A stretch of 64,000 bases of DNA from Escherichia coli (GTDB lineage Bacteria > Pseudomonadota > Gammaproteobacteria > Enterobacterales > Enterobacteriaceae): assembly GCF_003334405.1 (NCBI RefSeq), contig NZ_QOWM01000003.1; one strand, given 5' to 3'. The translations under genes and the position numbers were made by a program. Below are positions 25,742 to 53,732 of this stretch, piece by piece; position 1 is the first letter of the stretch, and the number at the start of each line of letters is the position of its first letter. The notes beneath the pieces were generated by a model that did not search any database, was not told the origin of the DNA, and saw only the letters and a list, made by a program, of their open reading frames with translations.

Positions 25742-26302
25742 CTATTGTGCGGTCGGCTTCAGGAGAGTCTGACCCGGTGTTTTGTGCTCTGCCAGATACT
25801 GATGCTGGAATATACACATGCGAATGGCATTACGATATTGACCATTAATAAAGAACTCGTGCATCAATTCACCTTCAACCGAAAAGCCAAGCTTGCGGTA
25901 AATGTGAATCGCTTTTTCATTCTCTTTATCAACGATCAGATACAGCTTATAGAGATTGAGAACGGTAAAGCCATAGTCCATTGCTAATTTGGCGGCACGG
26001 GTTGCCAGACCTTTCCCCTGATACTCCGGGGAGATAATTATCTGAAATTCTGCGCGGCGATGAACATGGTTAATTTCCACCAGCTCCACCAGACCGGCTT
26101 TTTCGCCGTCACATTCCACCACAAAGCGCCGTTCGCTCTGATCGTGAATATGCTTATCATACAGATCAGAGAGTTCAACAAAGGCTTCGTAGGGTTCCTC
26201 AAACCAGTAACGCATCACACTGGCGTTATTGTCGAGTTGATGTACATAGCGTAAATCTTCACGCTCCAGCGGGCGTAGCTTAACACTGTGGGCGCTTGGC
26301 AT
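25742..26302 (-). CDS. speG: Spermidine N1-acetyltransferase (GNAT)
   Basis: 186-aa ORF, GNAT fold with [22 protein letters not shown] acetyl-CoA motif. Confidence 0.92.
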
Positions 26303-26336
26303 AACGTGTCCTTACATTCCTTAAATCAATAACAGG

Positions 26337-26678
26337 TTAGGGGGTAATAACGCGGCCAGTTCGACGGTCCAGGCAGCGCAAAGTATTGGGCTCCCAGTAG
26401 GCATTGATGTTGGCGCTTTGCTCACATTTATCGCGGTTATCAAAAGCGGCGTCGGCTTTATCCCACTCTTTTTCAGTGCGTTTATTCACTTTCTGGCGCA
26501 GATTGCGCGTGTCATTCCATTGCTCTTTTTCCATAGCGGCGTGCTGGCGGCTTTGTGCACTGTCGCCAGACTCAATCACCAGTTTGTTAGTTTCGGCATG
26601 AACAGTTGTGCTCAATGCCAGTGCGCAAGGCAGCAGAATAGCGAGCAGGCCGATTCGTTTGCTGAGAGTGATTTTCAT
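26337..26678 (-). CDS. ynfB: UPF0482 secreted protein
   Basis: 113-aa ORF with signal peptide. Confidence 0.85.
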
Positions 26679-26812
26679 AATTCATTCCCTGTATGAATGA
26701 TTAAAGGTGATTCTACACCATCCACTGCGGACGCAAAACGTACCAGGAGGGTGTTTATATTGATGATATTATGTCGCCCTATAACTATACATGATGTCAA
26801 TAAGAGACAAAG

Positions 26813-27139
26813 ATGATTAAAACAACGTTACTATTTTTTGCTACTGCGCTGTGTGAAATTATTGGATGCTTTCTGCCCTGGTTGTGGTTAAAACGAAACG
26901 CCAGTATCTGGCTGTTGCTTCCGGCGGGGATTTCACTGGCGCTGTTTGTCTGGTTGTTAACGTTGCATCCAGCGGCGAGTGGGCGTGTTTACGCGGCTTA
27001 TGGTGGCGTTTATGTCTGCACGGCGTTGATGTGGCTGCGCGTTGTGGATGGCGTGAAACTGACTCTTTATGACTGGACGGGTGCGTTGATTGCGCTTTGC
27101 GGCATGTTGATCATTGCTGCGGGCTGGGGGCGCACGTAG
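26813..27139 (+). CDS. ynfA: UPF0060 small membrane protein
   Basis: 108-aa four-helix membrane ORF. Confidence 0.85.
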
Positions 27140-27344
27140 GAACATAAATCCATTTTATCAATAAGATAAGAGGAAGTGTCAGCTGACAAAAGGTATTCTA
27201 TTTCATCTTTTGTCAACCATTCACAGCGCAAATATACGCCTTTTTTTGTGATCACTCCGGCTTTTTTCGATCTTTATACTTGTATGGTAGTAGCTCAGTT
27301 GCGTAGATTTCATGCATCACGACAAGCGATGCAAGGAATCGAAC

Positions 27345-28559
27345 ATGAAGATCGTAAAGGCTGAAGTTTTTGTTACCTGTCCGGGGCGTAATTTCGTCAC
27401 ATTAAAAATCACCACTGAGGACGGTATTACGGGCCTTGGGGATGCCACCCTCAATGGACGTGAGCTTTCCGTGGCCTCTTATTTGCAGGATCACCTTTGT
27501 CCGCAGCTTATTGGTCGCGATGCGCACCGTATCGAAGATATCTGGCAGTTTTTCTATAAAGGTGCTTACTGGCGTCGCGGTCCGGTTACGATGTCGGCCA
27601 TTTCAGCGGTTGATATGGCGCTGTGGGATATTAAAGCCAAAGCTGCCAACATGCCGCTTTACCAGTTACTCGGCGGCGCGTCTCGTGAAGGGGTGATGGT
27701 TTATTGCCATACCACCGGTCACAGTATTGATGAAGCTCTGGATGATTATGCCCGTCATCAAGAGCTTGGATTCAAAGCCATCCGCGTGCAGTGCGGAATC
27801 CCTGGTATGAAAACCACCTACGGCATGTCGAAAGGTAAAGGTCTGGCTTATGAACCCGCAACCAAAGGACAGTGGCCGGAAGAGCAGCTGTGGTCGACGG
27901 AGAAATACCTCGATTTCATGCCGAAATTGTTTGACGCGGTACGTAACAAGTTTGGTTTTAATGAACATTTGCTGCATGACATGCACCATCGCTTAACGCC
28001 TATTGAAGCGGCGCGCTTTGGTAAAAGCATTGAAGATTATCGCATGTTCTGGATGGAAGACCCGACGCCTGCGGAAAACCAGGAATGCTTCCGTCTCATT
28101 CGCCAACATACCGTCACACCCATCGCAGTGGGTGAAGTCTTCAACAGCATCTGGGACTGCAAACAACTGATTGAAGAGCAACTCATCGATTATATCCGCA
28201 CCACGCTGACCCATGCAGGCGGAATTACCGGTATGCGCCGGATTGCCGATTTTGCTTCGCTGTATCAGGTACGTACTGGCTCACACGGTCCTTCCGATTT
28301 GTCACCAGTCTGCATGGCTGCGGCGCTGCACTTTGATCTGTGGGTCCCCAATTTCGGTGTCCAGGAATACATGGGTTATTCCGAACAAATGCTCGAAGTC
28401 TTCCCGCACAACTGGACTTTCGATAACGGCTATATGCATCCGGGAGACAAACCGGGTCTTGGTATCGAATTCGATGAAAAGCTGGCGGCGAAATATCCCT
28501 ATGAACCTGCTTATCTACCAGTCGCACGTCTGGAAGATGGCACGCTGTGGAACTGGTAA
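27345..28559 (+). CDS. rspA: Enolase-superfamily mannonate/altronate dehydratase-like starvation-sensing protein
   Basis: Start at ATG 27345 ([17 protein letters not shown]...), 404 aa. Confidence 0.9.
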
Positions 28560-28570
28560 GGAGTAAGATA

Positions 28571-29590
28571 ATGAAAAGCATATTAATTGAAAAACCGAAT
28601 CAACTGGCGATTGTCGAACGTGAAATACCCACCCCGTCAGCGGGTGAAGTACGAGTAAAAGTGAAACTTGCCGGAATTTGTGGTTCAGATAGCCATATTT
28701 ATCGTGGGCATAATCCTTTTGCGAAATATCCGCGCGTCATTGGTCATGAATTCTTTGGCGTCATTGATGCAGTGGGTGAAGGCGTGGAAAGCGCCAGAGT
28801 CGGTGAACGTGTTGCTGTCGATCCGGTGGTCAGCTGTGGGCATTGCTATCCGTGCTCTATAGGTAAACCGAACGTTTGTACGACACTGGCTGTATTAGGT
28901 GTGCACGCTGACGGTGGTTTCAGTGAATATGCCGTGGTTCCGGCAAAAAATGCGTGGAAAATTCCTGAAGCAGTGGCCGATCAATATGCGGTAATGATCG
29001 AACCTTTTACCATTGCGGCTAACGTAACCGGACATGGTCAACCGACTGAAAATGATACCGTTCTGGTTTATGGTGCCGGTCCAATCGGCCTGACGATCGT
29101 TCAGGTATTAAAAGGCGTCTATAACGTTAAAAATGTGATTGTTGCCGATCGCATTGATGAACGACTGGAAAAAGCGAAAGAGAGCGGGGCTGACTGGGCG
29201 ATTAATAACAGCCAGACACCGCTTGGCGAGATTTTCACTGAAAAAGGCATCAAGCCGACATTAATTATCGATGCGGCTTGTCATCCTTCTATCCTGAAAG
29301 AGGCCGTAACGCTGGCTTCTCCAGCGGCACGTATTGTATTGATGGGGTTCTCCAGTGAACCGTCTGAAGTGATTCAGCAAGGAATTACCGGAAAAGAACT
29401 CTCTATTTTCTCTTCACGCTTAAATGCAAATAAATTCCCGATCGTTATCGACTGGTTAAGTAAAGGGTTAATTAAACCAGAAAAATTAATTACCCATACG
29501 TTTGATTTCCAGCATGTTGCTGATGCCATTAGTTTATTTGAACAGGATCAAAAACATTGCTGCAAAGTCTTACTCACTTTTTCTGAATAA
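28571..29590 (+). CDS. rspB: Zn-dependent alcohol dehydrogenase family starvation-sensing protein
   Basis: Start at ATG 28571 (MKSILIEKPN...), 339 aa; GICGSD and GHEFFG zinc-ADH motifs; start overlaps rspA 3' end region. Confidence 0.9.
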   Translation: MKSILIEKPNQLAIVEREIPTPSAGEVRVKVKLAGICGSDSHIYRGHNPFAKYPRVIGHEFFGVIDAVGEGVESARVGERVAVDPVVSCGHCYPCSIGKPNVCTTLAVLGVHADGGFSEYAVVPAKNAWKIPEAVADQYAVMIEPFTIAANVTGHGQPTENDTVLVYGAGPIGLTIVQVLKGVYNVKNVIVADRIDERLEKAKESGADWAINNSQTPLGEIFTEKGIKPTLIIDAACHPSILKEAVTLASPAARIVLMGFSSEPSEVIQQGITGKELSIFSSRLNANKFPIVIDWLSKGLIKPEKLITHTFDFQHVADAISLFEQDQKHCCKVLLTFSE

Positions 29591-29647
29591 TACCAATAAC
29601 GGCGAGTAAGTAGTACGCATCTTACCTCTTTTTTAGAGATAACCATT

Positions 29648-29758
29648 ATGACAATAGAAAAACACGAAAGAAGCACTAAGGATTTGGTGAAAGCAGCAGT
29701 ATCGGGATGGCTGGGCACTGCGCTTGAATTTATGGATTTCAAGAGTCATGCGTGTTAA
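29648..29758 (+). pseudogene. ydfJ: 5' fragment (about 30 codons) of MFS transporter gene ydfJ, truncated at the prophage junction
   Basis: ATG 29648 gives MTIEKHERSTKDLVKAAVSGWLGTALEFMDF, then diverges into KSHAC-stop at 29756-29758; the integrase 3' end lies 20 bp beyond. Confidence 0.6.
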
Positions 29759-29777
29759 CTATTTGATAAATATTAAA

Positions 29778-31073
29778 TTAATTTTTCATTGCTTCGTTAT
29801 GGGGCATGGTTGGGGCAAACTCGCTTAACTGTGTATTTAACAAAGCTACCTGTGCATTATTGTTTTCAGACATCCATTTTCCGTATACCTGAAATACCAT
29901 TTGCGCATCTGCATGGCCCATCTGGTTTGCTATAAATGCCGGGTTAGCACCAGCTGTCAGCGACCAGCAGGCATAAGTATGTCTCGACTGATATGATTTT
30001 CGATGGCGGAGTCCGGCACGTTTTATCGCTGCGTCCCACATCTGCCTTATTGAGTCAACGGTAAAATGGTCACCATAATTTTTTACTCTCGCTGACACTT
30101 CAGGTTGAAAAACAAAGGTGCATTTTTGTTTTTCTGTTCTGCCATACTCTCTGAGGTGAACATCAATGATATGCTCTTTGCTCAGTCTCGTTAATGTCAT
30201 CTGACTCCGGAGAGCGTCGATTGCTGGCTTAATAAGATGAATGACCCGATTGGTTCCCGCCTGTGTTTTTGGTACCGTGAAACGGTCTTTTGCTAAATTT
30301 CTCCTGATCATCATTGTTCCATTTTTCAGATCTATGTCCTCCCATCCAAGTGCACACAGCTCACCAGGGCGAACTCCAGTATAAACAGAAACACACCATA
30401 AATTTTTTGCTTGCTGATTTCTGCACGCATCGATAAGACGGATAAATTCTTCCCGCGAAAGAGGATCCGGAATGGTTCTTGATTCCTTTAATGGCGAGAT
30501 CCCCTTAAACGGATTATCTGCCAGGTAACCGTTATCAACACCAAACTGGAACACGGCGTTAAGATTTGTCATGTAATTATTTACAGTTACAGCCGATCTC
30601 CCTGGTTGTGTAACAATATAGTTACTTTTGGGGATCTGGTATCCAGTCAGTAACTCTTTACGAACCTCCAGTAATTTTTCTTTATTAATCGATGAGGCAA
30701 GATTTTTTTCACCGATTATGCTCAGGATATTTTTGATGACGGCACGGTATGTGTTGAGTGATGTTTTGGCGACTTCAGTTTCTTTCAGTGCCAGAAATTT
30801 TTCAGCCAGTTCTTTTATGGTTAAATCTTGTCGGGCCTCACCAAATTTTTCCAGATTGCGTGAGGAGGGAAACTGTTTTGCATAGTCGAAAACACCAGTT
30901 TTTATTGCGTAACAAACAGAGGAGCGTAGTTCACCTGCAACGCGCCTGTTTTTTGCTGTGTCAGGAACCCCCAGATTTTCCCTGACTCTTACGTCTTTAT
31001 AAACAAACCAGATACGTAATTTCCCTCCATGGTTTTCCACGCCTGTCGGATATTTCATTTCAACTTCTCTCAT
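29778..31073 (-). CDS. Lambdoid tyrosine integrase (apparently full length)
   Basis: 431-aa ORF with catalytic-domain motifs YTGVRPGELCALGWEDIDL, HTYACW and GHADAQMVFQVYGKW; real start may be the ATG at 31058 (MKYPTGV...) which has a GAGAAG upstream. Confidence 0.85.
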   Translation of the reverse strand: MREVEMKYPTGVENHGGKLRIWFVYKDVRVRENLGVPDTAKNRRVAGELRSSVCYAIKTGVFDYAKQFPSSRNLEKFGEARQDLTIKELAEKFLALKETEVAKTSLNTYRAVIKNILSIIGEKNLASSINKEKLLEVRKELLTGYQIPKSNYIVTQPGRSAVTVNNYMTNLNAVFQFGVDNGYLADNPFKGISPLKESRTIPDPLSREEFIRLIDACRNQQAKNLWCVSVYTGVRPGELCALGWEDIDLKNGTMMIRRNLAKDRFTVPKTQAGTNRVIHLIKPAIDALRSQMTLTRLSKEHIIDVHLREYGRTEKQKCTFVFQPEVSARVKNYGDHFTVDSIRQMWDAAIKRAGLRHRKSYQSRHTYACWSLTAGANPAFIANQMGHADAQMVFQVYGKWMSENNNAQVALLNTQLSEFAPTMPHNEAMKN

Positions 31074-31092
31074 TAGTTAGTGTGGCTTTTAG

Positions 31093-31344
31093 TCAAGTAA
31101 GATGACGTCTTGGTCTCGCTGATGCCTGGCGCTCAATCCAGCGATCAATTTCTTCCAGGTTGTAAAAGCATGGACTGTTATCCCATGGCATACCGTCATG
31201 AGCGACATGCTTATATTCCCTTCCTTCCATAAACGATTTTTCCCGGGCCTTTTTTAACGTACCTTTTTTTATTCCTTTCAGCGCAATTAACTGCTCTTCG
31301 GATACCCATTTGCCGGGAGAGACAATCATGATTACTTCGCTCAT
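31093..31344 (-). CDS. Excisionase-like protein
   Basis: 83-aa ORF immediately upstream of int on the same strand; GREYKHVAHDG resembles the lambda Xis GREYLFHESA region. Confidence 0.55.
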   Translation of the reverse strand: MSEVIMIVSPGKWVSEEQLIALKGIKKGTLKKAREKSFMEGREYKHVAHDGMPWDNSPCFYNLEEIDRWIERQASARPRRHLT

Positions 31345-31416
31345 CGATTTCTTTATCTCTTACATCAGACGAGCGCCGGTTGCAGAATACCAGTCACAAC
31401 CGGCGACAGTTGAACA

Positions 31417-33315
31417 TTAAGAATCAGCCTGACTCGGGATCAGTTTTTGCCAGATAACTGAAACGTATTTTGCCTGGTAACGGGCGTCATCAAGTGCATT
31501 ATGGCGCTCACCTTCGAATGGAATAGCCGTTCTGGCATCGAAGTCTATGGCTTTCCCCAGCTCAACGATTGTGCGTACATCGCGATCGTTGTAGTAACGC
31601 CACGGGCAGGGGATCCCCTGCCGTTCGTATGAACGGCGCAAAATCGTGTTGTCGAAGTTGGCTCCATTTCCCCAAACCTGAACAAAAAATTCACCGGAGT
31701 TTTCGTCGATAAATTCTCGCAATTGTAACAGTGCATCATCTAACGGGATTTCATCGGTCATAATGGCAGATTGCGCTTCGCGTGATTGCTTAAGCCACCA
31801 TTTAATGGTGTCCCGATCAATGACTCCGCCAGCAGTTTCCAGATCGATAGTCTTACTAAATTCCGGTCCCATATCTCCGGTTTGCGGATCGAAAAATATT
31901 GCACCTATTGAGATGATCGGGGCATCAGGATTTTTTCCCATGGTTTCAAGGTCGATCATTAGATGGTCACACGTCCTGCTGGTGGATGTGATTTCGTGAT
32001 GACCGTTCACCTTAATTGGGTGATCTGCCGTCTCGCCAGTTTCATTATCGCTATTGTGATGCTGATTGCCGCCAGTGTTCTCCTTGTGTGGATGTTCAGC
32101 GCCTTCCATTTCCTCCGGATCATCTTCCTGAACTTCAACCTGATACTCTTCATCGAATGTTTCTTGGTATGTTGCGTCGCCCATCACCGCGCCACAATCA
32201 GGGCAGTTGCCGCCGCCGGTCTGACCGCAGGCGGTGCAGACTTTTTCCACTTCCTGTTGCGCTACTGGTTCAGGCTGTTTCGTTTCTGGCTCGTTTTGTA
32301 ACGCATTTGGACTGTTTTGTTCCGCTTTTTGGTAGTTCCGTTCCGATTCATGCTGGTTCTGGTTCACAGAATCGCGGGTCTGGAGCCCCTTAACCCATTT
32401 CGGATCATTCGGGTCACTAATCCCTTCAACAAATTCACCACGTGATGCAGCAAGCAACTTATCGGCGTCAGGCTGGCTGATATTGGCTGCCTGCATAATT
32501 TTGTTTACTTCGTCAGCGGTAACTTTTATCGGCTCTGGTTGTTCTGAATCTTCAGCGGTATCTACATTTTGCGGTAAGCCCGTGTATGTGCCATTTTTTC
32601 GGGCAAAATATTCTTCTTTTGTGATTTCAGTGGCGCCAGCAGCCAGTGCCTTATCCAGACCAGAGAGTTTGTTTGCGCGACCGTATTTTTCTCCGTCCTT
32701 ATCTGCGAAGAGGAAATAGAACGGCCCCTCACGCTCTACAGATGGTTCAGCTTCCGGCGCGGTTTCATTTTTTGGGATATCAGATACCTCAGTTTCCACT
32801 GCATCAGTTTGTGTTTCTGATGACTGGAGAACATCAACAGTGCCCAGGTCTGTTTCTTCATTCTCAAACACGCCCTTTGTCGTCAGGTATTCGCAGATAT
32901 ATTTGTTCAGTGCTACGGGATCTTTGTGAATGTCGATCGGACGCTCACGGACAAGGCCAAAAATAGTTTGGCGGTCGTAGCGAAGGGCATCAGGCTGTTT
33001 GCGCATTGATGCCGAGATACGCTTCCAGTCTTCGCGGTCGTTGTCGATAACTTCTTTTTTTGCCCAGCGATGGATGCTGCCGTCAATGTTTCCGGCATCC
33101 ACATCACTAGGCCAGAGAGCGTAGGCCAGTTCGTCATCCAGTGTTTTCCATGTCTGCTTGTATTCGCGATGAATGGCAGCAATGACCGGGCTGATTTTTC
33201 CTGTTGAATTTTCAGTGTACTGTTGATTGGCTCTGGCGCGGGCGAGATCAACAACAGACGTGTATTTTCCGGTTTCCTTGCGTTCACCTTCGCGACGTTT
33301 TTTCCAGATGCGCAT
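31417..33315 (-). CDS. Phage exonuclease with C-terminal DnaQ-like (DEDDh) 3'-5' exonuclease domain
   Basis: C-terminal MIDLETMG ... WGNGANFD ... HNALDDARY motifs; central CTACGQTGGGNCPDCGA zinc ribbon; long Glu/Asp/Gln-rich linker; 5' end uncertain (first ATG at 33315; the track ORF extends to a TTG at 33450). Confidence 0.6.
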   Translation of the reverse strand: MRIWKKRREGERKETGKYTSVVDLARARANQQYTENSTGKISPVIAAIHREYKQTWKTLDDELAYALWPSDVDAGNIDGSIHRWAKKEVIDNDREDWKRISASMRKQPDALRYDRQTIFGLVRERPIDIHKDPVALNKYICEYLTTKGVFENEETDLGTVDVLQSSETQTDAVETEVSDIPKNETAPEAEPSVEREGPFYFLFADKDGEKYGRANKLSGLDKALAAGATEITKEEYFARKNGTYTGLPQNVDTAEDSEQPEPIKVTADEVNKIMQAANISQPDADKLLAASRGEFVEGISDPNDPKWVKGLQTRDSVNQNQHESERNYQKAEQNSPNALQNEPETKQPEPVAQQEVEKVCTACGQTGGGNCPDCGAVMGDATYQETFDEEYQVEVQEDDPEEMEGAEHPHKENTGGNQHHNSDNETGETADHPIKVNGHHEITSTSRTCDHLMIDLETMGKNPDAPIISIGAIFFDPQTGDMGPEFSKTIDLETAGGVIDRDTIKWWLKQSREAQSAIMTDEIPLDDALLQLREFIDENSGEFFVQVWGNGANFDNTILRRSYERQGIPCPWRYYNDRDVRTIVELGKAIDFDARTAIPFEGERHNALDDARYQAKYVSVIWQKLIPSQADS

Positions 33316-33373
33316 CTCTGCCTGAATTTCGGGCCATTTAGCACCAGGAATACATTTATGCTTAACCCACCCA

Positions 33374-33640
33374 ATGGCGTGCAACTTAAGCTCCGGATAC
33401 GGGTTATTCCCCTCTGAACAGGCGCGTAAGGACTGGCAAAACGCCCGCAAAAAACTCTCGAGGGCAAAGGTGAAGAAACCTGCTGTGGTTGATCCGGACC
33501 TTATCTGGTCATCACCTGACGGAGAAATACGTCGCTACGACAGTCGCCTAAACATAATCTGTCGCGAGTGCCGGAAGAGCGAAGTTATGCAGCGCATACT
33601 GGCTTTCTATCAGGGTAATTTTCAGGACGTGGCGCAGTGA
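33374..33640 (+). CDS. Hypothetical small basic protein
   Basis: 88-aa ORF; stop overlaps the GTG start of the downstream methyltransferase fragment (GTGA); no recognisable SD. Confidence 0.3.
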   Translation: MACNLSSGYGLFPSEQARKDWQNARKKLSRAKVKKPAVVDPDLIWSSPDGEIRRYDSRLNIICRECRKSEVMQRILAFYQGNFQDVAQ

Positions 33641-33993
33641 GTGCACCGGCAACCATTCTTGATATGTGCTGTGGCAGCCGCATGTTCTGGTTCGATAAGT
33701 CTGACGAACGGGCGATATTCAGCGATATCAGAAAAGAAGGATACACATTACGCAATGGGAGACGCTTGATTATCAGCCCTGACATTATCGCAGATTTTCG
33801 TGCATTATCATTTGCAGACGCATCTTTTTCGATGGTTGTATTAGACCCTCCGCATCTTGAGAGTGTTGGTGATAACGCCTGGATGGGAAAGAAATATGGA
33901 CGGCTGAATAAAGATGCCTGGCGTGATGATTCGCGACAGAGATTTAAAGAAGCCTTTCGGGTGTTGAGGCCGCACGGCGTTCTGATTTTTTAA
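33637..33993 (+). pseudogene. DNA methyltransferase, probably 3'-truncated
   Basis: 118-aa ORF with ILDMCCGS (SAM-binding motif I-like) and VVLDPPHLES (DPPH, catalytic motif IV of N6A/N4C methyltransferases); ends shortly after motif IV. Confidence 0.45.
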
Positions 33994-34255
33994 TGGAATG
34001 AAACGCAAATACCGGTAAGCCAGATTCTGGCACTGACAGACAGAAAACCTGTTATCTGTCAACGAACAGGGAAAAAACGATAAAACCCACTGGATTATTT
34101 TTATGAAAGAGGCATCCAGTGAGTAGATTCGTAAGGCTACAGATACGTATATCTGAATAATTAAATTCAGTTCTGTAAATAAAATTTAATCCTTAACCGG
34201 ATGGATTTCTGCACCCTCAGAACATCAGGAGGCCGCCCGAAAGGGCGGTAGTGAA

Positions 34256-34890
34256 ATGCGAAAGTTCAAAATTATTATTGAAACGGGAATAGCTGGTGGA
34301 GATTTTGAGGATGTATTCGAAGTGGACGATGACGCAACACCTGAGGAAATTCATGACGGAGCATAAGAAATTTTCTTTAACTACTGCAATTACTCATACC
34401 ACGAAATAAAAGACGATGAGGAAGAACAAAGTGGCTGATTTTTGTTCAGCTAAATATAACATCAGTTTTGAAGAGCGGGATGAACTATTAATGGACTATG
34501 GTGAGTTACGCGGTGGAAGTGCTGCTGATGTCGAATCCTAGCGTGATGACTATGAAGCGGGAAAAACTCCGGTCGAAGCATATTGTGATGAGTGGGGCGA
34601 TGAATGAGCGAGATTAATTATCAGGAAGGGCATGAAACGGCGGGGCAAGCAAAACCAGTGGCATGGCGATATCGCTACGTGAAAAAAGGCGTTACGGACT
34701 TTCAGGGGAAGTAGTGGTCTGGTGACTGGAAATATGTACCGAAAAAAGAGGATTGTAACGACAGGCCGAACTATCAAATTCAGGCCTTATTCACTGCCTC
34801 ACCAGTCCCAGTTACATCAGAAGAACTGGTTAAAGCTGTGCACTTTTATGAACAACTAAAACGCGAAAATCCACCAACATCCGGCAACTA
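34256..34890 (+). pseudogene. Decayed run of small early-region ORFs interrupted by in-frame stop codons
   Basis: Three consecutive reading frames each continue in-frame across a single stop (TAA 34364-34366, TAG 34539-34541, TAG 34710-34712); the second and third are linked by an ATGA overlap. Confidence 0.3.
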
Positions 34891-35145
34891 GATTAATGGA
34901 TTAACTATGTCGGTTAAACGACCAGCCAACTGAAAAAGCGGAAACCTGATTACAGGTTGCCAGATAAGGCAATGAGCTACCTGGCGCGGAACGGACTGAT
35001 AAGTATGGGGAATGTTTTACGATGAACCTTTAGACTAAAGAGTTTGTAACGCTATGTAAGTGATTTTTTCTGGTTTAGATATTTATATGTCCGGCCAAAT
35101 TGAGGTGTGTTTAAATGTAATTGCACATTGATTGTAGGAGGAATA

Positions 35146-46037: not shown

Positions 46038-46193
46038 ATGCGTGAATATCCAAATGGCGAAAAAACACACCTTACTGTAATGGCCGCAGGGTTTCCATCT
46101 CTGACCGGAGATCATAAAGTCATTTATGTAGCCGCGGATCGACATGTTACTTCAGAAGAAATTCTGGAAGCAGCAATAAGGCTCTTGAGTTGA
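46038..46193 (+). CDS. ynfN: 51-aa small prophage protein (YnfN-like)
   Basis: MREYPNGEKTHLTVMAAGFPSLTGDHKVIYVAADRHVTSEEILEAAIRLLS; symbol assignment is from memory and uncertain. Confidence 0.4.
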   Translation: MREYPNGEKTHLTVMAAGFPSLTGDHKVIYVAADRHVTSEEILEAAIRLLS

Positions 46194-46364
46194 TTTGATG
46201 CTATTGCATTGATAATTCAGGAAAATTCTCTTTGTCTGTTTGTGTAAAATTTAGACTATCGTATGTTGATTATTGCGATGTTTCATCTTATCTTTTACAC
46301 GTTTGCACCATATAATCGACTTACTGTGTAACTGGAAAGTCATAACAGACTAAAAGAGGAAATG

Positions 46365-46538
46365 ATGAATATTGAAAACTTAAAAACAAAAGCAGAAGCA
46401 GATATTTCTGAATATATAACAAAAAAAATTATTGAACTTAAGAAAAAGACCGGGAAAGAAGTTACCAGTATTCAGTTTACCGCACGGGAAAAAATGACGG
46501 GTCTTGAAAGCTATGATGTCAAGATTAATTTAATCTGA
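46365..46538 (+). CDS. gnsB: GnsA/GnsB-family small protein
   Basis: 57-aa ORF MNIENLKTKAEADISEYITKKIIELKKKTGKEVTSIQFTAREKMTGLESYDVKINLI. Confidence 0.75.
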   Translation: MNIENLKTKAEADISEYITKKIIELKKKTGKEVTSIQFTAREKMTGLESYDVKINLI

Positions 46539-46689
46539 TGTATTCAATAATAAAATTTATCCATAAACCTCGTTTTTACGGGGTTTTGTTATATTTGAAT
46601 GGTTCCGAATATCTAAATCACAATTGTTGATGGTTTTTATTAAACCAATGCAGTCCGGCTCAGGAGTGAGAGAAGCCGGACGTTATGGT

Positions 46690-47100
46690 TTAGCGTGGTA
46701 AGATCTGTGTAGTTTTCTGGATGCTTTCAGTAAATAGTAATGAATTATCAAAGGTATAGTAATATCTTTTTTGTTCGTGGATATTTGTAACCCACCGAAA
46801 AACTCCTGCTTTAGCAAGGTTTCTTCTGTATTCCTGAAATGTGATCTCTCTGGATTTCAGCTTATTAGAGGTCGTTTCTATAAGATGCCTATCCTTTGAA
46901 AATTTGACAGACACAATGTTTTTTAGGCCCTTTAATAACACTGTATTATCATTTTTTAATACAATATGAACATTCTCTGTGGCTAAATAGTAAATGTAAT
47001 GTGAGACATTGTGACGTTTTAGCTCAGAATAAAACCATTGATAGTTTAAATCGTTTCGAACTTTATCAAATATTTGTTTAAAAATGACTACCTGATCCAT
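46690..47100 (-). CDS. ydfO: DUF1398 prophage protein
   Basis: 136 aa from ATG 47100 ([30 protein letters not shown]...). Confidence 0.7.
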
Positions 47101-47157
47101 AGATAAACCTTCCATGTGATATGAGGGGGCGTAGTCTGCACGATTATCTAAATTGCT

Positions 47158-47391
47158 TCAATCTGGTCTGACCTGTTTTCTGAGCAATTCAGTAATGTCA
47201 CTCTTTTCTTTGTTTGCTTCAGAAGAAACTCTTTTTTCTGAGCACAGTCTCCGGCGGCAGGCTTCAATGACCCAGGCTGAGAAATTCCCGGACCCTTTTT
47301 GCTCAAGAGCGATGTTAATTTGTTCAATCATTTGGTTAGGAAAGCGGATGTTGCGGGTTGTTGTTCTGCGGGTTCTGTTCTTCGTTGACAT
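47158..47391 (-). CDS. ynfO: Small basic prophage protein (YnfO-like)
   Basis: 77-aa ORF MSTKNRTRRTTTRNIRFPNQMIEQINIALEQKGSGNFSAWVIEACRRRL...; ribbon-helix-helix-like. Confidence 0.5.
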   Translation of the reverse strand: MSTKNRTRRTTTRNIRFPNQMIEQINIALEQKGSGNFSAWVIEACRRRLCSEKRVSSEANKEKSDITELLRKQVRPD

Positions 47392-47779
47392 GAGGTTGCC
47401 CCGTATTCAGTGTCGCTGATTTGTATTGTCTGAAGTTGTTTTTACGTTAAGTTGATGCAGATCAATTAATACGATACCTGCGTCATAATTGATTATTTGA
47501 CGTGGTTTGATGGCCTCCACGCACGTTGTGATATGTAGATGATAATCATTATCACTTTACGGGTCCTTTCCGGTGATCCGACAGGTTACGGGGCGGCGAC
47601 CTCGCGGGTTTTCGCTATTTATGAAAATTTTCCGGTTTAAGGTGTTTCCGTTCTTCTTCGTCGTAACTTAATGTTTTTATTTAAAATACCCCCTGAAAAG
47701 AAAGGAAACGACAGGTGCTGAAAGCGGGCTTTTTGGCCTTTGTCGTTTCCTTTCTCTGTTTTTGTCCGTGGAATGAACA

Positions 47780-48325
47780 ATGGAAGTCAACAAAAAGCAG
47801 CTGGCTGACATTTTCGGTGCGAGTATCCGTACCATTCAGAACTGGCAGGAACAGGGAATGCCCGTTCTGCGAGGCGGTGGCAAGGGTAATGAGGTGCTTT
47901 ATGATTCTGCCGCCGTCATAAAATGGTATGCCGAAAGGGATGCTGAAATTGAGAACGAAAAGCTGCGCCGGGAAGTTGAAGAACTGCGGCAGGCCAGCGA
48001 GACAGATCTCCAGCCAGGGACTATTGAGTACGAACGCCATCGACTTACGCGTGCGCAGGCCGACGCACAGGAGCTGAAAAATGCCAGAGACTCCGCTGAA
48101 GTGGTGGAAACCGCATTCTGTACTTTCGTGCTGTCGCGGATCGCAGGTGAAATTGCCAGTATTCTCGACGGGATCCCCCTGTCGGTGCAGCGGCGTTTTC
48201 CGGAACTGGAAAACCGACATGTTGATTTCCTGAAACGGGATATCATCAAAGCCATGAACAAAGCAGCCGCGCTGGATGAACTGATAACGGGGCGCACTTT
48301 GACGGTGACCAGAGCGGCACGGTGA
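47780..48325 (+). CDS. nohA: Terminase small subunit Nu1 homolog, C-terminus replaced at a deletion junction
   Basis: First ~168 aa match lambda Nu1 (MEVNKKQLADIFGASIRTIQNWQEQGMPVLRGGGKGNEVLYDSAAVIKWYAERD...ALDELI), then an unrelated tail TGRTLTVTRAAR-stop. Confidence 0.75.
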   Translation: MEVNKKQLADIFGASIRTIQNWQEQGMPVLRGGGKGNEVLYDSAAVIKWYAERDAEIENEKLRREVEELRQASETDLQPGTIEYERHRLTRAQADAQELKNARDSAEVVETAFCTFVLSRIAGEIASILDGIPLSVQRRFPELENRHVDFLKRDIIKAMNKAAALDELITGRTLTVTRAAR

Positions 48326-48609
48326 ATGGTGTCACGCCGCCAGCAGTTCAGCACCTGACCGCAGAAGTCACCGCAGACAGCGGGGAATACCAGGTGCTGG
48401 CGCGCTGGGACACGCCGAAGGTGGTGAAGGGGGTGAGCTTTATGCTTCGCCTGACCGTGGCAGCGGACGACGGCAGTGAGCGGTTGGTCAGCACGGCCCG
48501 GACGACGGAAACCACATATCGCTTCACGCAGCTGGCGCTGGGAAATTACAGGCTGACAGTCCGGGCGGTAAATGCATGGGGACAGCCGGTGCACATACCC
48601 ATTCGATGA
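48322..48609 (+). pseudogene. Fragment of tail tip/host specificity protein J (fibronectin-III-like region)
   Basis: ...[25 protein letters not shown] matches the lambda J C-terminal region; only about 95 codons present. Confidence 0.5.
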
Positions 48610-48884
48610 CATTTGTTTCAGGTGGTTCCAGTGGTGCTCCGGGAAGTGGATCACCTGATTATTCTAAATACAGTGTTAACACTTCTTCTGCAGGCGCTCA
48701 TACGCACTCTGTATCGGGTACTGCTGCAAGCGCAGGTGCACACGCACATACTGTCGGTATTGGTGCTCATACGCACTCCGTTGCGATTGGTTCACATGGA
48801 CATACCATCACCGTTAACGCTGCTGGTAACGCGGAAAACACCGTCAAAAACATCGCATTTAACTATATTGTGAGGCTTGCATAA
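48576..48884 (+). pseudogene. C-terminal fragment of side tail fibre protein Stf
   Basis: Gly/Ser/Thr-rich sequence with repeated GAHTHS motifs ([36 protein letters not shown]) typical of lambdoid Stf C-termini; no N-terminal part. Confidence 0.6.
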
Positions 48885-49459
48885 TGGCATTCAGAATGAG
48901 TGAACAACCACGGACCATAAAAATTTATAATCTGCTGGCCGGAACTAATGAATTTATTGGTGAAGGTGATGCATATATTCCGCCTCATACAGGTCTGCCA
49001 GCAAACAGTACCGATATTGCACCGCCAGATATTCCGGCAGGCTTCGTGGCTGTTTTCAACAGTGATGAGGCATCGTGGCATCTCGTTGAAGATCATCGGG
49101 GTAAAACGGTTTATGACGTAGCGTCAGGGGACGCGTTATTTATTTCTGAACTCGGTCCGTTACCGGAAAATGTTACCTGGTTATCGCCGGAAGGGGAGTT
49201 TCAGAAGTGGAACGGCACAGCCTGGGTGAAGGATACGGAAGCAGAAAAACTGTTCCGGATCCGGGAGGCGGAAGAAACAAAAAACAGCCTGATGCAGATA
49301 GCCAGTGAGCATATAGCGCCGCTTCAGGATGCTGTGGATCTGGAGATCGCAACGGAGGAAGAAACCTTGTTGCTGGAAGCCTGGAAAAAGTATCGGGTGT
49401 TGCTGAACCGTGTTGATACATCAACTGCACCGGATATTGAATGGCCAGCACTGCCGTAG
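48884..49459 (+). CDS. tfa: Tail fibre assembly protein
   Basis: 191-aa ORF; start overlaps the stf fragment stop. Confidence 0.8.
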
Positions 49460-49556
49460 GGTAAAACATATAAATTCTATAATTAGATGTATCTCTCCAT
49501 TTACGGCAAGGAAGGGGGCTTGGAAGACGTAAAGCATCTCACACCGAGATTATTTT

Positions 49557-50147
49557 TTATATGTCAGGTGTCTGACGTTTTGCTTTGGCTCTTAAAATGG
49601 TTTGCCGCGAGGTTTTGAATTCCCGGGCAATGGCACTTATACTTACACCTGACTTAATTCGTTCGAATACCACCTGTTTCTGTTCTTCATTTAACACAGG
49701 TGGTCGACCAAAACGTTTCCCTGCGCCGCGGGCTCTTACTATCCCGGAATGAGTGCGTTCAAGTAAAAGGTCTCGTTCAAATTCAGCGACTGCTGAAATT
49801 ACGTGCATCATCATTTTTCCTGTTGGACTGGTCAGGTCAATGCCCCCCAATGCTAAGCAATGCACTCTGATACCTGTTTCGGTCAGTTGTTCCACTGTTT
49901 TCCTGATATCCATTGCATTACAACCAAGGCGATCCAGTTTTGTCACAATCAATTGATCACCACATTTCAGGCGAGCAAGCAACCGGTTAAAACCAGGACG
50001 CTCACTGGTTGCTGCTGAGCCGCTAATGTGTTCTTCGATTATTTGCTGAGGTTTGATTTTAAAACCTGCACTTTCGATTTCCCGGCGTTGATTTTCGGTG
50101 GTCTGATCCAGCGTTGATATCCGACAGTAAGCAAAAATTCGAGACAT
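49557..50147 (-). CDS. pin: Serine recombinase, Hin/Gin/Pin DNA-invertase family
   Basis: 196-aa [23 protein letters not shown]... with catalytic Ser in RISTLDQ and C-terminal HTH. Confidence 0.88.
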
Positions 50148-50463
50148 AGTGAGACTCTATACGAAATTGGTGTTCATATCATAATGCATCTCAGAAAATA
50201 ATTTTGATTATTTTTGTGCATATTTGTATGTACACGTTCGAAAATAAACGAATGCGTATGCAACCCCGTAACTTTGGTGAGACCCAAAATCGATTTTGTG
50301 AAAAATGGCTTTAACTCGGTTTGTTTTTCGAGTTCCGGGCGGACTCAAGGAAGAAGAATAGTGTTGCGTGTTATTTTAACCAGATTTCAAGTTGTTTGGT
50401 CGTGGAAAAGTGGAGCAAAATGTTGTTAAAGTGGAAAAATGATAAAAAAGTAAGTTTATTATA

Positions 50464-50697
50464 TTACATTTTACCATTTAAATTTTGGTTGTCTTTAAGA
50501 ACTGATATCGCTGTTTGTAATAATTCTTTGTTATCCAGCCATGATTTTTTCTTTATGTTTCCTTCAATGTAATCAAGCAATGTTCTGGTATTGATAGGTC
50601 TTCCCTGTTTTGCTACTTCCACTACAGCATCCCCTAGGATAATTCTGACTTCAGGAAGCTGCGCAGGGAACCACTTTAGGGTGTCTTTTGATTTCAT
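50464..50697 (-). CDS. ynaE: DUF1737-like prophage small protein (YnaE/YdfK family)
   Basis: 77 aa from ATG 50697 (MKSKDTLKWFPAQLPEVRIILGDAVVEVAKQGRPINTRTLLDYIEGNIKKK...). Confidence 0.75.
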   Translation of the reverse strand: MKSKDTLKWFPAQLPEVRIILGDAVVEVAKQGRPINTRTLLDYIEGNIKKKSWLDNKELLQTAISVLKDNQNLNGKM

Positions 50698-51657
50698 GAA
50701 TATATTCCTTAAAATATTATTGATTTTCATTGCGATATTGTATGTCTGATTCAGGATATGTTGACTTATACATCGGTTTTGTCTGGGTTATTGGATATGC
50801 CAATCCCTAATTTTATTAGGGCATGACTAAAAATGCTGAATATGATAAGGAGCGAAGTGATTATCAGTATGCTGTTCATATAGCCTCGAATTAGTAATGT
50901 GTTATATATGATATAGTTGACAATTTTTATCCTGGGTGTTCTTAAAGTTCGTAGATAAACATTGTCGTTTCAGGTATACAGGAATGCTAACAGATGGCGG
51001 CAAAAATCAGGCGGTTTATGGCGCAAGCTGAAGTGGCAACTGCAAACTATCTTATGCAGAGACTCTACACGGATTGGGTTTAAAAGTATACATAGATAAC
51101 AGTTTTTATCTGAAGAAGAAAAATATCAAGGTGATATAGCCTATATGCCTTTGATGTGGAGGAATGAATGTGATGGGAGTGATGTATCTGAATAGTTGAA
51201 AAACCGCAGTCACGTCGTATGCAAGAACGTGCTGCGGTTGGTTTGACTTTGATTGAGACGTTTTGGAATTTTTTTTTGTGGCAAAAATGGGGCAAAACGC
51301 TGCAAAAGGGGCAAAAAAGGGGCAAAAAAAGAGTGGATTATCGTAGTTTATTGTTCTCGCTGATGATGTTTAACACATTGAAAAATAAGTAAAACACTTA
51401 TGAGTCAGATAGTTGTGATTTTTGCCCTTACTTGTTCAGATTGTATTGTTCTTTCTTACTAATTTCTTGATTTTGCGACATTTAAAAGCGACTCAATTCG
51501 TTATATGGCATCAGAAGAGTATGCGTCATGCCGGAACGCCCAGCATAAGAAATCTGATATAAAAAACTGTGGCGTGTATGGTACGGATTAGAGGGGAAAA
51601 TGTCAGCACATTTGCGAAATGAATCAAAAAGCCCGCAGCAATGTGCGGGCGTTAGTG

Positions 51658-52173
<516 letters not shown>

Positions 52174-52232: not shown

Positions 52233-53366
52233 TTAGAACTGATAAACCAGACCTAAAGCGACAATATCATCGGTAGAGATGCCATTGGCAGCGTAGAAGC
52301 TGTCATCTTCATCCAACAGGTTGATTTTATAGTCAACGTAGGTGGACATGTTTTTATTGAAATAGTAAGTCGCGCCAATATCGGCGTATTTAACCAGATC
52401 TTTATCATCAACACCTGCCGGGTTGTCTGCACCACCCGCAGCGTGCAGGTCACGGCCTTTAGACATCAGGAAAGAGACTGCCGGACGCAGACCAAAATCA
52501 AACTGGTACTGTGCAGTGACTTCAAAATTCTGGGTTTTGTTTGCCACAGCATAATCGCTGTCGCCAAACGGGGTCATATTACGCGTTTCTGAATACATGG
52601 TTGCCAGGTAAATATTGTTAGCATCGTATTTTAGCCCAGCAGTCCACGCGTCTGCTTTATCACCACCCGCCGCAGTATGGTTAACCTGGTCATTGGTGCG
52701 GTCAGAAGAGGTGTATGCCGCACCAGCGCTAAAGCCCATGCCTAAATCATATGTTGTGGAAAGACCCCAGCCGTCACCGTTTTCATGGCGAACATCACGT
52801 CCGTTGTTGGTGCCTTCCTGACCATTACTGGCTCCTTCGTTGTTACCTTGATACTGCACCGCGAAGTTCAGACCATTTACCAGACCGAAGAAATCAGTAT
52901 TACGATAAGTCGCGACGCCATTGGCTCGACCAGTCATAAAGTTGTCTGCATTGGTATAAGAGTCACCGCCAAATTCAGGCAGCATATCGGTCCAGCCTTC
53001 GATGTCGTACATTACGCCATAATTACGTCCGTAATCGAAAGAACCGTAATCTGCAAATTTCAGCCCGGCAAATGCCAGACGGGTCCATGACTGGTTTTTT
53101 GAAGATTCAGTGTTGTTTGCCTGAATATTGTATTCCCATTGACCGTAGCCAGTGAGTTGATCGTTAATTTGGGTTTCGCCTTTAAAACCCAGACGCGCAT
53201 AGCTCTGGTCGCCATCTTTCGCTGAATTATCAGAAAAATAATGCAGGCCATCAACTTTGCCATACAGATCTAATTTGTTGCCGTCTTTATTATAAACTTC
53301 GGCTGCATGTGCAGCACCTGCGGCGAGCAGGGCAGGAATTAAAAGTGCCAGTACTTTGCTTTTCAT
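52233..53366 (-). CDS. ompN: General porin (OmpC/OmpF/PhoE family), OmpN-like
   Basis: 377-aa ORF with signal peptide, N-terminal [25 protein letters not shown] and C-terminal Phe; position between uspF and ydbK. Confidence 0.85.
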
Positions 53367-53732
53367 TGAATAAATCCTTTAGTTATTTTATTTGCCTTTT
53401 ATCCCCATTTCGGGGAGTGAAAACATCCTAAAGGAGAAGTTCAGTTAGCCGATAAATATCATTTGTTACGCCTTAAGTAAAACCTTAATCAAATAATTTC
53501 TCTGAAATGATAATAAGTCTGGTGAATGTATCGAAGATAATGCATACAAAATAAAAATTATACTTTTAATTTGCTATACGTTATTCTGCGCGGGTTATAT
53601 GCCTTTATTGTCACAGATTTTATTTTCTGTTGGGCCATTGCATTGCCACTGATTTTCCAACATATAAAAAGACAAGCCCGAACAGTCGTCCGGGCTTTTT
53701 TTTTAGAATTGGATAATCCTTATCCAGAGCAT

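Follow-up and report, generated by a model that had tools for sequence, protein, structure and literature searches.

An interrupted ydfJ gene at a Qin-type attL and a Rac-type right end in a cryptic Escherichia coli prophage

The ydfJ stump and the adjoining prophage

The window, a 64-kb stretch of Escherichia coli DNA, contains the junction between the host rspAB region and a prophage. The last intact host gene before the junction is rspB, which encodes a Zn-dependent oxidoreductase (28571..29590, plus strand; RefSeq annotation transferred by offset from collinear loci, with the ORF ending at 29590). An ORF for 36 amino acids (29648..29758, plus strand; MTIEKHERSTKDLVKAAVSGWLGTALEFMDFKSHAC) begins 58 bp downstream of the rspB stop codon, as found both in the ORF listing and by direct reading of the window. 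Its first 31 codons (29648..29740) agree in DNA and protein sequence with intact ydfJ, and residues 1-31 are identical at all 31 positions to the 455-aa YdfJ of strain EC2001; the remainder, KSHAC and a stop codon, comes from phage DNA. The earlier note, made from the letters alone, had likewise read the ORF as the start of YdfJ followed by KSHAC and a stop. The resemblance to YdfJ is confirmed as real and not due to chance. Intact ydfJ follows rspAB immediately and reads in the same direction, as does the stump, which bears out the claim that a transporter gene co-oriented with rspAB was disrupted.

The ynfB-ynfA-rspA-rspB-ydfJ locus of EC2001 is 99.6% identical to window positions 26300-29743 over 3444 nt, and the match ends there. 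The intact EC2001 protein continues after residue 31 with QLYSLGAALV..., placing the break between GTALEFMDF and QLYS. Full-length YdfJ scores 462.9 bits over residues 23-418 against TIGR00883, a metabolite/H+ symporter family with a curated cut-off of 443.45 bits. Since the profile starts at residue 23, the break falls nine residues into the conserved transporter core. With ydfJ cut inside its first conserved transmembrane motif, away from the promoter-proximal end, the YdfJ transporter is almost certainly inactive in this genome, as far as can be judged from sequence. A sequence search of the PDB with full-length YdfJ as query gave no solved relative at E<=1e-5, and a literature search found no paper on the substrate or function of YdfJ.

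The stop codon of the 36-aa ORF is separated by 19 bases (29759-29777) from that of a converging integrase ORF, in agreement with the 20 bp given before. The longest form of this tyrosine integrase is 431 aa (29778..31073, minus strand), and the RefSeq start gives 426 aa (29778-31058). Pfam recognises Arm-DNA-bind_2 and Phage_integrase domains in it, and RefSeq calls it a 'site-specific integrase' in the collinear NCTC9100 locus. Upstream of it lies an excisionase ORF (xis, 31093..31344, minus strand), annotated as such in the NCTC9100 locus and in phages. The int-xis region is identical to that of PhiR42_1 over 1660 nt and 99.0-99.6% identical to those of HannyBb, Tritos and mEp460_ev081; with attP included, the region in these four lambda-like siphoviruses is 99.0-100% identical to the window.

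Beyond the junction extends a defective prophage of 21.7 kb (29741..51431), consisting of a Qin-type body, assigned by its identity to Qin of NCTC9100, and a Rac-type arm. Window positions 29000-51241 are 99.9-100% identical to the NCTC9100 Qin prophage, except for an IS30 inserted in NCTC9100. By transfer of the NCTC9100 annotation, the body contains int, xis, a truncated exo, a methyltransferase gene, an ISNCY transposase remnant, flxA, relBE, hokD, rem, ydfU, the antiterminator Q gene, cspF/cspB, essD-ydfR-rrrQ-rzpQ, cspI, gnsB, ydfO, nohA, remnants of J and stf, tfa, pin, ydfK and ynfT/ynaM. In the window, nohA occupies 47780-48325.

K-12 Qin, in which ydfJ is split into b4600 and b1543 and the integrase gene is intQ, shares with the window its host locus, its attL sequence and the order rspA-rspB-ydfJ'-int. 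Both also have a common body of relBE, hokD, ydfU, cspBFI, essD, rrrQ, nohA, tfaQ, pinQ and ydfK. The two differ in three respects. The K-12 intQ gene is interrupted by IS2, whereas int and xis of the window are intact; the window variant, unlike K-12 Qin, is without the dicA/dicB/ydfD block between the truncated exo and the DUF977/methyltransferase genes; and the distal end of K-12 Qin is an attR in ydfJ, whereas that of the window is the attR of Rac.

The phage relatives are complete genomes of 45-49 kb with full head and tail gene sets (PhiR42_1 measures 48.7 kb), and like the window they have a tfa-pin-ynaE end module. Compared with them, the element in the window has lost the interval from nohA to the 3' end of stf and part of the early region, and the head and tail genes of PhiR42_1 are absent from it. 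Neither the directly repeated cognate attL and attR nor the full set of lytic and structural genes expected of an active prophage was found. To judge from its gene content, the prophage is a widespread cryptic deletion remnant of the Qin type. Lacking a directly repeated partner att site, the element would have no means of excision, and the intact-looking Int and Xis are presumably unable to excise it. The shared integrase and attP link the cryptic Qin prophage to the living phages mEp460, Tritos and PhiR42_1.

The attL junction and its 11-bp core

We compared four att sites: the attL of the window, the attB of EC2001 with its intact ydfJ, the attR of a canonical Qin lysogen in another strain (NCTC9100), and the attP of three phages (mEp460_ev081, Tritos and PhiR42_1). 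An 11-bp core, TTATGGATTTC, at window positions 29730..29740 is exactly identical in all four. An imperfect extension of it, TGAATTTATGGATTTC, i.e. TGAATT(T)ATGGATTTC, spans 29725-29740. Read across the break, attB has GCGCTTGAATTTATGGATTTC followed by CAGTTATATTCG, and attP has ACACCTGTGAATTATGGATTTC followed by AAGAGTCATGCGTGTTAAC. In the four-way alignment, attL is composed of the left part of attB, the core and the right part of attP, and attR of the left part of attP, the core and the right part of attB. Immediately left of the core, a single T distinguishes attB and attL (AATTTATGG) from attP and attR (GAATTATGG), and because of this difference strand exchange can be placed to the right of that T, within the 11 bp.

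The core covers ydfJ codons 28-31 (F-M-D-F), the last of which is TTC at 29738-29740. The insertion, previously put at about 30 codons into the gene, thus lies exactly after codon 31. Comparison with the uninterrupted ydfJ of EC2001, which the earlier note had proposed as a check, showed identity through 29740 and located the core exactly. The core had been expected at 29735-29760; six of those bases do fall within it, but the core itself runs from 29730 to 29740, and positions 29741-29760 belong to the phage arm only. This phage P' arm extends from the core to the int stop codon (29741..29777) and continues into the 3' end of int. It is identical to the attP of PhiR42_1, near-identical to those of mEp460_ev081 and Tritos, and unrelated to attB; in all phages whose attP was compared, the core is the same and the right arm corresponds to the window from 29741 onward. 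The tail codons of the 36-aa ORF, AAG AGT CAT GCG TGT TAA, are likewise identical to the right arm of the PhiR42_1 attP.

On the attR side of canonical lysogens the sequence reads CTG TGA ATT ATG GAT TTC, which leaves Met29 as the sole possible restart of ydfJ. This agrees with the 427-aa truncated YdfJ called on very many contigs and with the published account of Qin, by which integration at the 5' end costs ydfJ its promoter and 28 N-terminal codons (PMC6379469).

These data support the assignment of the region 29648-29758 as attL, the att junction on the integrase side of a prophage inserted after ydfJ codon 31. A lambdoid phage of the Qin/mEp460 type would have integrated by means of its tyrosine integrase, with exchange inside the core, leaving host rspAB and ydfJ codons 1-31 on the left and the phage P' arm, int and xis on the right. 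The organisation resembles that of the lambda Int/attP/attB system, in which an arm-binding tyrosine integrase adjoins attL (BOP'), xis lies upstream and the common core is short. Lambda differs in having another core and a target between gal and bio, as opposed to a coding region here. We assign a probability of about 0.93 to the reading as a whole, namely that the ydfJ stump lies at a Qin/mEp460-type attL and that the distal end of the same prophage is a Rac attR, most likely owing to Qin/Rac recombination.

The left junction is common. In a megablast search of 5426 complete E. coli genomes with positions 29300-30300, the whole kilobase, including the rspB-ydfJ'-int junction, was matched in 2663. 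Many of the other genomes match the query over positions 1-441/444 only and are annotated there with rspB followed by 'ydfJ: MHS family MFS transporter YdfJ'. For E. coli W, K-12, B and Crooks, a published list gives ydfJ as the site of Qin (PMC3032704). This attL is already known as a feature of about half of E. coli genomes, and the sole aspect here that is not routine is the non-cognate right end at the Rac site in ttcA.

A Rac attR at the right end

The earlier note had proposed that a matching core repeat would lie at about 51,000-51,650. It does not: the core was found only in its attL copy when the 64-kb window was searched for the 16-mer (with up to two mismatches) and for the exact 11-mer, a direct-repeat search over 29500-64000 gave no relevant second copy, and when the intact ydfJ-ydfI-ydfZ region was compared with the window by BLAST, no match lay beyond 29743. 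The window thus contains no cognate attR in which the same core is joined to the rest of ydfJ. Nor does an intact ydfJ continue in frame elsewhere, which would have spoken against a disruption; the 3' part of the gene is absent from the window.

Instead, homology to Qin and mEp460 stops at 51241. Beyond the equivalent point, phage mEp460 and canonical Qin have a 236-bp P arm followed by the attR core. In the window its place is taken by a Rac-specific phage arm, the P arm of the Rac attR (51242..51431), which corresponds in sequence to the right end of Rac in K-12 and in Z1323CEC0013. The Rac att core, TTGTTCAGATTGTATTGTTCTTTCTT, follows at 51432..51457, as established by alignment with a Rac-free attB and with the K-12 Rac attL, the ttcA-intR junction. 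This 26-bp core can be written TTGTTCAG(A/G)TTGTATTGTTCTTTCTT, with one mismatch to K-12 at 51440. Positions 51432..51481 (minus strand) constitute the ancestral 5' end of ttcA, the 'ttcC' remnant, with its start codon at 51481-51479, and are identical to the ttcA start in the Rac-free strain DETEC-E223. The same right arm, 26-bp core and displaced ttcA start as at 51242-51481 are found at the Rac attR/ttcC of K-12.

The host genes that follow are uspF (51658-52092, minus strand) and ompN (52233-53366, minus strand), both placed by ORF and by annotation transferred by offset, and then ydbK/nifJ, ldhA and ydbH. Both uspF and ompN normally flank Rac and not Qin. By the sequence of its arm and core, its ttcA remnant and its neighbours, the right end of the prophage is the attR of Rac in ttcA. 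In Rac lysogens this attR is joined to the Rac body (recE, kilR and stfR, among others) and paired with an attL beside intR, whereas in the window its neighbour is a Qin body and its counterpart a non-cognate attL. Such mismatched ends are a caution that prophage boundaries cannot always be recovered by searching for a repeated core.

Origin of the hybrid and competing accounts

The orientation of the flanking genes bears on how the two ends came together. In a K-12-type genome (g83), the minus strand carries both ompN (at 1.4366 Mb) and rspB (at 1.6562 Mb), 218 kb apart, and Rac and Qin lie between these genes and the terminus in opposite orientations. In the window, rspB (plus) and ompN (minus) are 22.6 kb apart. 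Flanks on opposite strands exclude a deletion, and can be produced by an inversion ending in both prophages. The junction itself lies in sequence common to the two, the shared pin-ydfK-ynfT/ynaM module, within which the window switches from Qin type to Rac type. Diagnostic SNPs confine the switch to 49442..51209: the last position distinguishing Qin from Rac on the Qin side is 49441, and Rac-type SNPs begin at 51210, followed by 51215 and 51217. Within this interval the Qin and Rac copies of other strains are identical or mosaic, and since, from strain to strain, each module is a mosaic of the other, the crossover can be narrowed no further.

We screened the 5426 complete genomes for a Qin-specific nohA region joined to uspF/ompN. 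This gave two candidates, C600 (NZ_CM132660.1) and AP027850, of which one shows the hybrid arrangement. AP027850 was rejected: it has an ordinary prophage at the Rac site, with late genes resembling those of Qin. In C600 the order is rspA-rspB-intQ...Qin...tfaQ-pin-ydfK-ynaM-uspF-ompN-nifJ-ldhA-ydbH, as in the window. SNPs that tell the Qin copy of K-12 from the Rac copy confine the C600 crossover to an interval of ~70 bp, equivalent to window positions 50932-50999.

These arrangements suggest that the inversely oriented, near-identical tfa-pin-ydfK-ynfT/ynaM modules of Qin and Rac recombined homologously. Such an exchange would invert a terminus-proximal segment of roughly 200 kb between the two prophages, and the 3' part of ydfJ would then be expected about 200 kb away, beside the Rac body. 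RecA-type homologous recombination between the inverted modules is the most likely cause of the hybrid, and is favoured because gene conversion between the same segments, the ydfK and ynaE regions of Qin and Rac, has been documented in K-12 ER2796 (PMC4444293). It is slightly better than an even bet that a real inversion of ~200 kb across the terminus occurred in nature and is captured in the window, having arisen once in a wild-type-like strain and separately in a K-12 C600 stock. A literature search found no paper describing a Rac/Qin inversion, and a look-up of the 427-aa truncated YdfJ for the reciprocal junction returned canonical contexts only.

The event would have relatives. In large chromosomal inversions such as those of E. 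coli O157:H7, near-identical prophage segments in inverse orientation flank the terminus, serve as substrates for recombination and give rise to hybrid prophages whose ends are swapped (Iguchi et al. 2006, as cited in PMC6379469). The partners here differ, being the cryptic Qin and Rac prophages in a commensal-type background, and the event is deduced from one contig and one other assembly. It would be a known kind of event, though one seldom observed between Qin and Rac. A real inversion would have produced two hybrid prophages with non-cognate att ends, the Qin attL and the displaced attR would be inverted repeats ~200 kb apart, and Int/Xis could only re-invert the segment between them and not excise the prophage.

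Alternatively, the attL may be genuine and the combination of a Qin left end with a Rac right end a misassembly, in which the assembler crossed from Qin to Rac at the ~2.7-kb near-identical tfa-pin-ydfK-ynfT/ynaM repeat and the true attR lies in ydfJ ~22 kb downstream. We regard this as possible but doubtful. The window comes from a draft WGS contig (GCA_003334405.1 QOWM01000003.1), and a mis-join within 49442-51209, where Qin and Rac copies are indistinguishable, would leave no trace. The exact Tfa protein of the window occurs in ten contexts. Nine are canonical, ending in YnaE, the 427-aa YdfJ, YdfI, YdfZ and RspR; the tenth, GCA_003334405.1, has the arrangement of the window and is base-identical across the junction. 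A single occurrence of the hybrid among the complete genomes screened also fits an artefact, and assemblers have been reported to misplace the Rac/Qin repeats (PMC3045373). Yet the contig is 496 kb long and extends past the module by ~400 kb on the left and 95 kb on the right, and short-read assemblers usually stop at kb-scale repeats of this kind instead of bridging them. The C600 chromosome-level assembly, moreover, is independent and has this arrangement too, with its crossover at another point, and inversions between inversely oriented prophages of the terminus region are established in E. coli, according to the citation of Iguchi et al. 2006 in PMC6379469. Whether it took place in the cell or in the assembler, an exchange of Rac and Qin ends affects synteny, terminus organisation and predictions of excision.

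Catalysis of the exchange by the PinQ/PinR serine invertase, acting at gix/pix-like sites of both prophages, would also be conceivable, as the pin gene (49557-50147) falls inside the crossover interval. Invertases of the PinQ/PinR family normally require closely spaced sites in cis. PinQ and PinR are active invertases in K-12, but the study of PinQ, which queried Qin and Rac, found inversions in e14 only (PMC12529663). A search of 49442-51241 for a gix/hix-like AAACCNNGGTTT core, admittedly a crude test, found none, and the crossover in C600 lies downstream of ynaM/ynfT and away from pin. For these last two reasons a Pin-catalysed event is unlikely, and we give it very little weight beside homologous recombination between the modules.

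At the left end, the 36-aa ORF could be taken for a functional small membrane peptide born of the insertion, since the native start region of ydfJ is preserved in it and about half of E. coli genomes carry it without change. This is highly improbable. Its conservation is accounted for by descent of the prophage, and its tail varies among phages, reading KSHTCQ... in mEp460. The ORF has no family match in an NCBIfam search, and RefSeq calls no gene there in the loci inspected. A promoter and terminator scan of 29300-30000 gave no signal at the junction, and an Rfam search of 27000-54000 at the gathering threshold placed no RNA family there. We take the ORF to be a pseudogene stump and not a gene.

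An event independent of phage integration (a deletion, a frameshift or an IS), with the integrase merely adjacent, would explain the bare truncation of ydfJ and nothing else, and is refuted by the four-way att alignment, since the break matches the common core of attP and attB to the base, what follows on the right recurs as the attP arm in three sequenced phages, and canonical lysogens carry the reciprocal attR with the remainder of ydfJ. The analysis of this junction narrows the Qin att core to 11 bp, which is useful for annotation.

Exchange between the Qin and Rac modules

The right portion of the defective Qin-type prophage was compared with four other loci over 48583-51241: L003 (the Qin locus of NCTC9100), L004 and L010 (in which uspF and ompN are annotated) and L013. 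Single-nucleotide differences diagnostic for Qin versus Rac in one strain were reversed in others, for example at 50820 and across 49123-49200. This swapping between strains implies that the two modules have exchanged sequence repeatedly, in line with gene conversion described in ER2796; because of this repeated exchange the exact Qin/Rac crossover is not mappable. Within the Rac att core at the right end of the prophage, the window carries A at position 51440, whereas K-12 Rac attL, the Rac-free attB and Z1323CEC0013 all have G; the substitution alters only the codon 14 region of the ttcA remnant. The adjoining Rac P arm (51242-51431), in which some annotations place a 57-aa ORF (WP_001157925.1), carries a series of GGGGCAAAA(A) repeats (GGGGCAAAACGCTGCAAAAGGGGCAAAAAAGGGGCAAAAAAAG), which are candidate arm-type binding sites for the integrase IntR.

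The integrase end and its neighbors

About 15 records labeled 'Stx2a-converting phage' close with ~327 nt that match the 3' end of int and the P' arm (29741-30068) at 90% identity, and the match extends to 1152 nt at 93% in the Stx2a_EH1535 record. These alignments suggest that some Stx2a prophages may encode a related integrase and possibly also use the ydfJ site. On the other side of int, xis is adjoined by an N-terminally truncated exonuclease gene (31417-33450), an ORF of 677 codons with a TTG start; the counterpart in PhiR42_1 and mEp460, complete lambda-like phages, is 823 aa. In the closest Qin relatives, an IS30 and a transposase fragment occupy exactly this point; both are missing from the window, where the BLAST pieces share a 13-bp overlap (33011-33023).

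RNA elements of the prophage and its host flank

The cold-shock genes cspB and cspI of the prophage are each preceded by a cspA-type thermoregulator 5' leader (42432-42824 and 45334-45719; Rfam RF01766, 159 and 113 bits), and the pair was also detected as a 200-nt direct repeat of 73% identity (42593-42792 and 45480-45679). A sok antitoxin RNA match (35415-35586; RF01794, 104 bits) adjoins the ISNCY transposase ORF (35660-36973) and is located upstream of the annotated relBE-hokD block, ~3.3 kb away, a position that suggests a second hok/sok-type locus or the remnant of one. The IS009 RNA is matched over its full length at 49227-49425 (RF02111, 221 bits), within the tail-fibre assembly gene tfa (48884-49459). 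Beyond the right end, in the host flank, the MicC sRNA (53591-53711; RF00121, 125 bits) is found in the interval from ompN to ydbK/nifJ, the same placement as in K-12.
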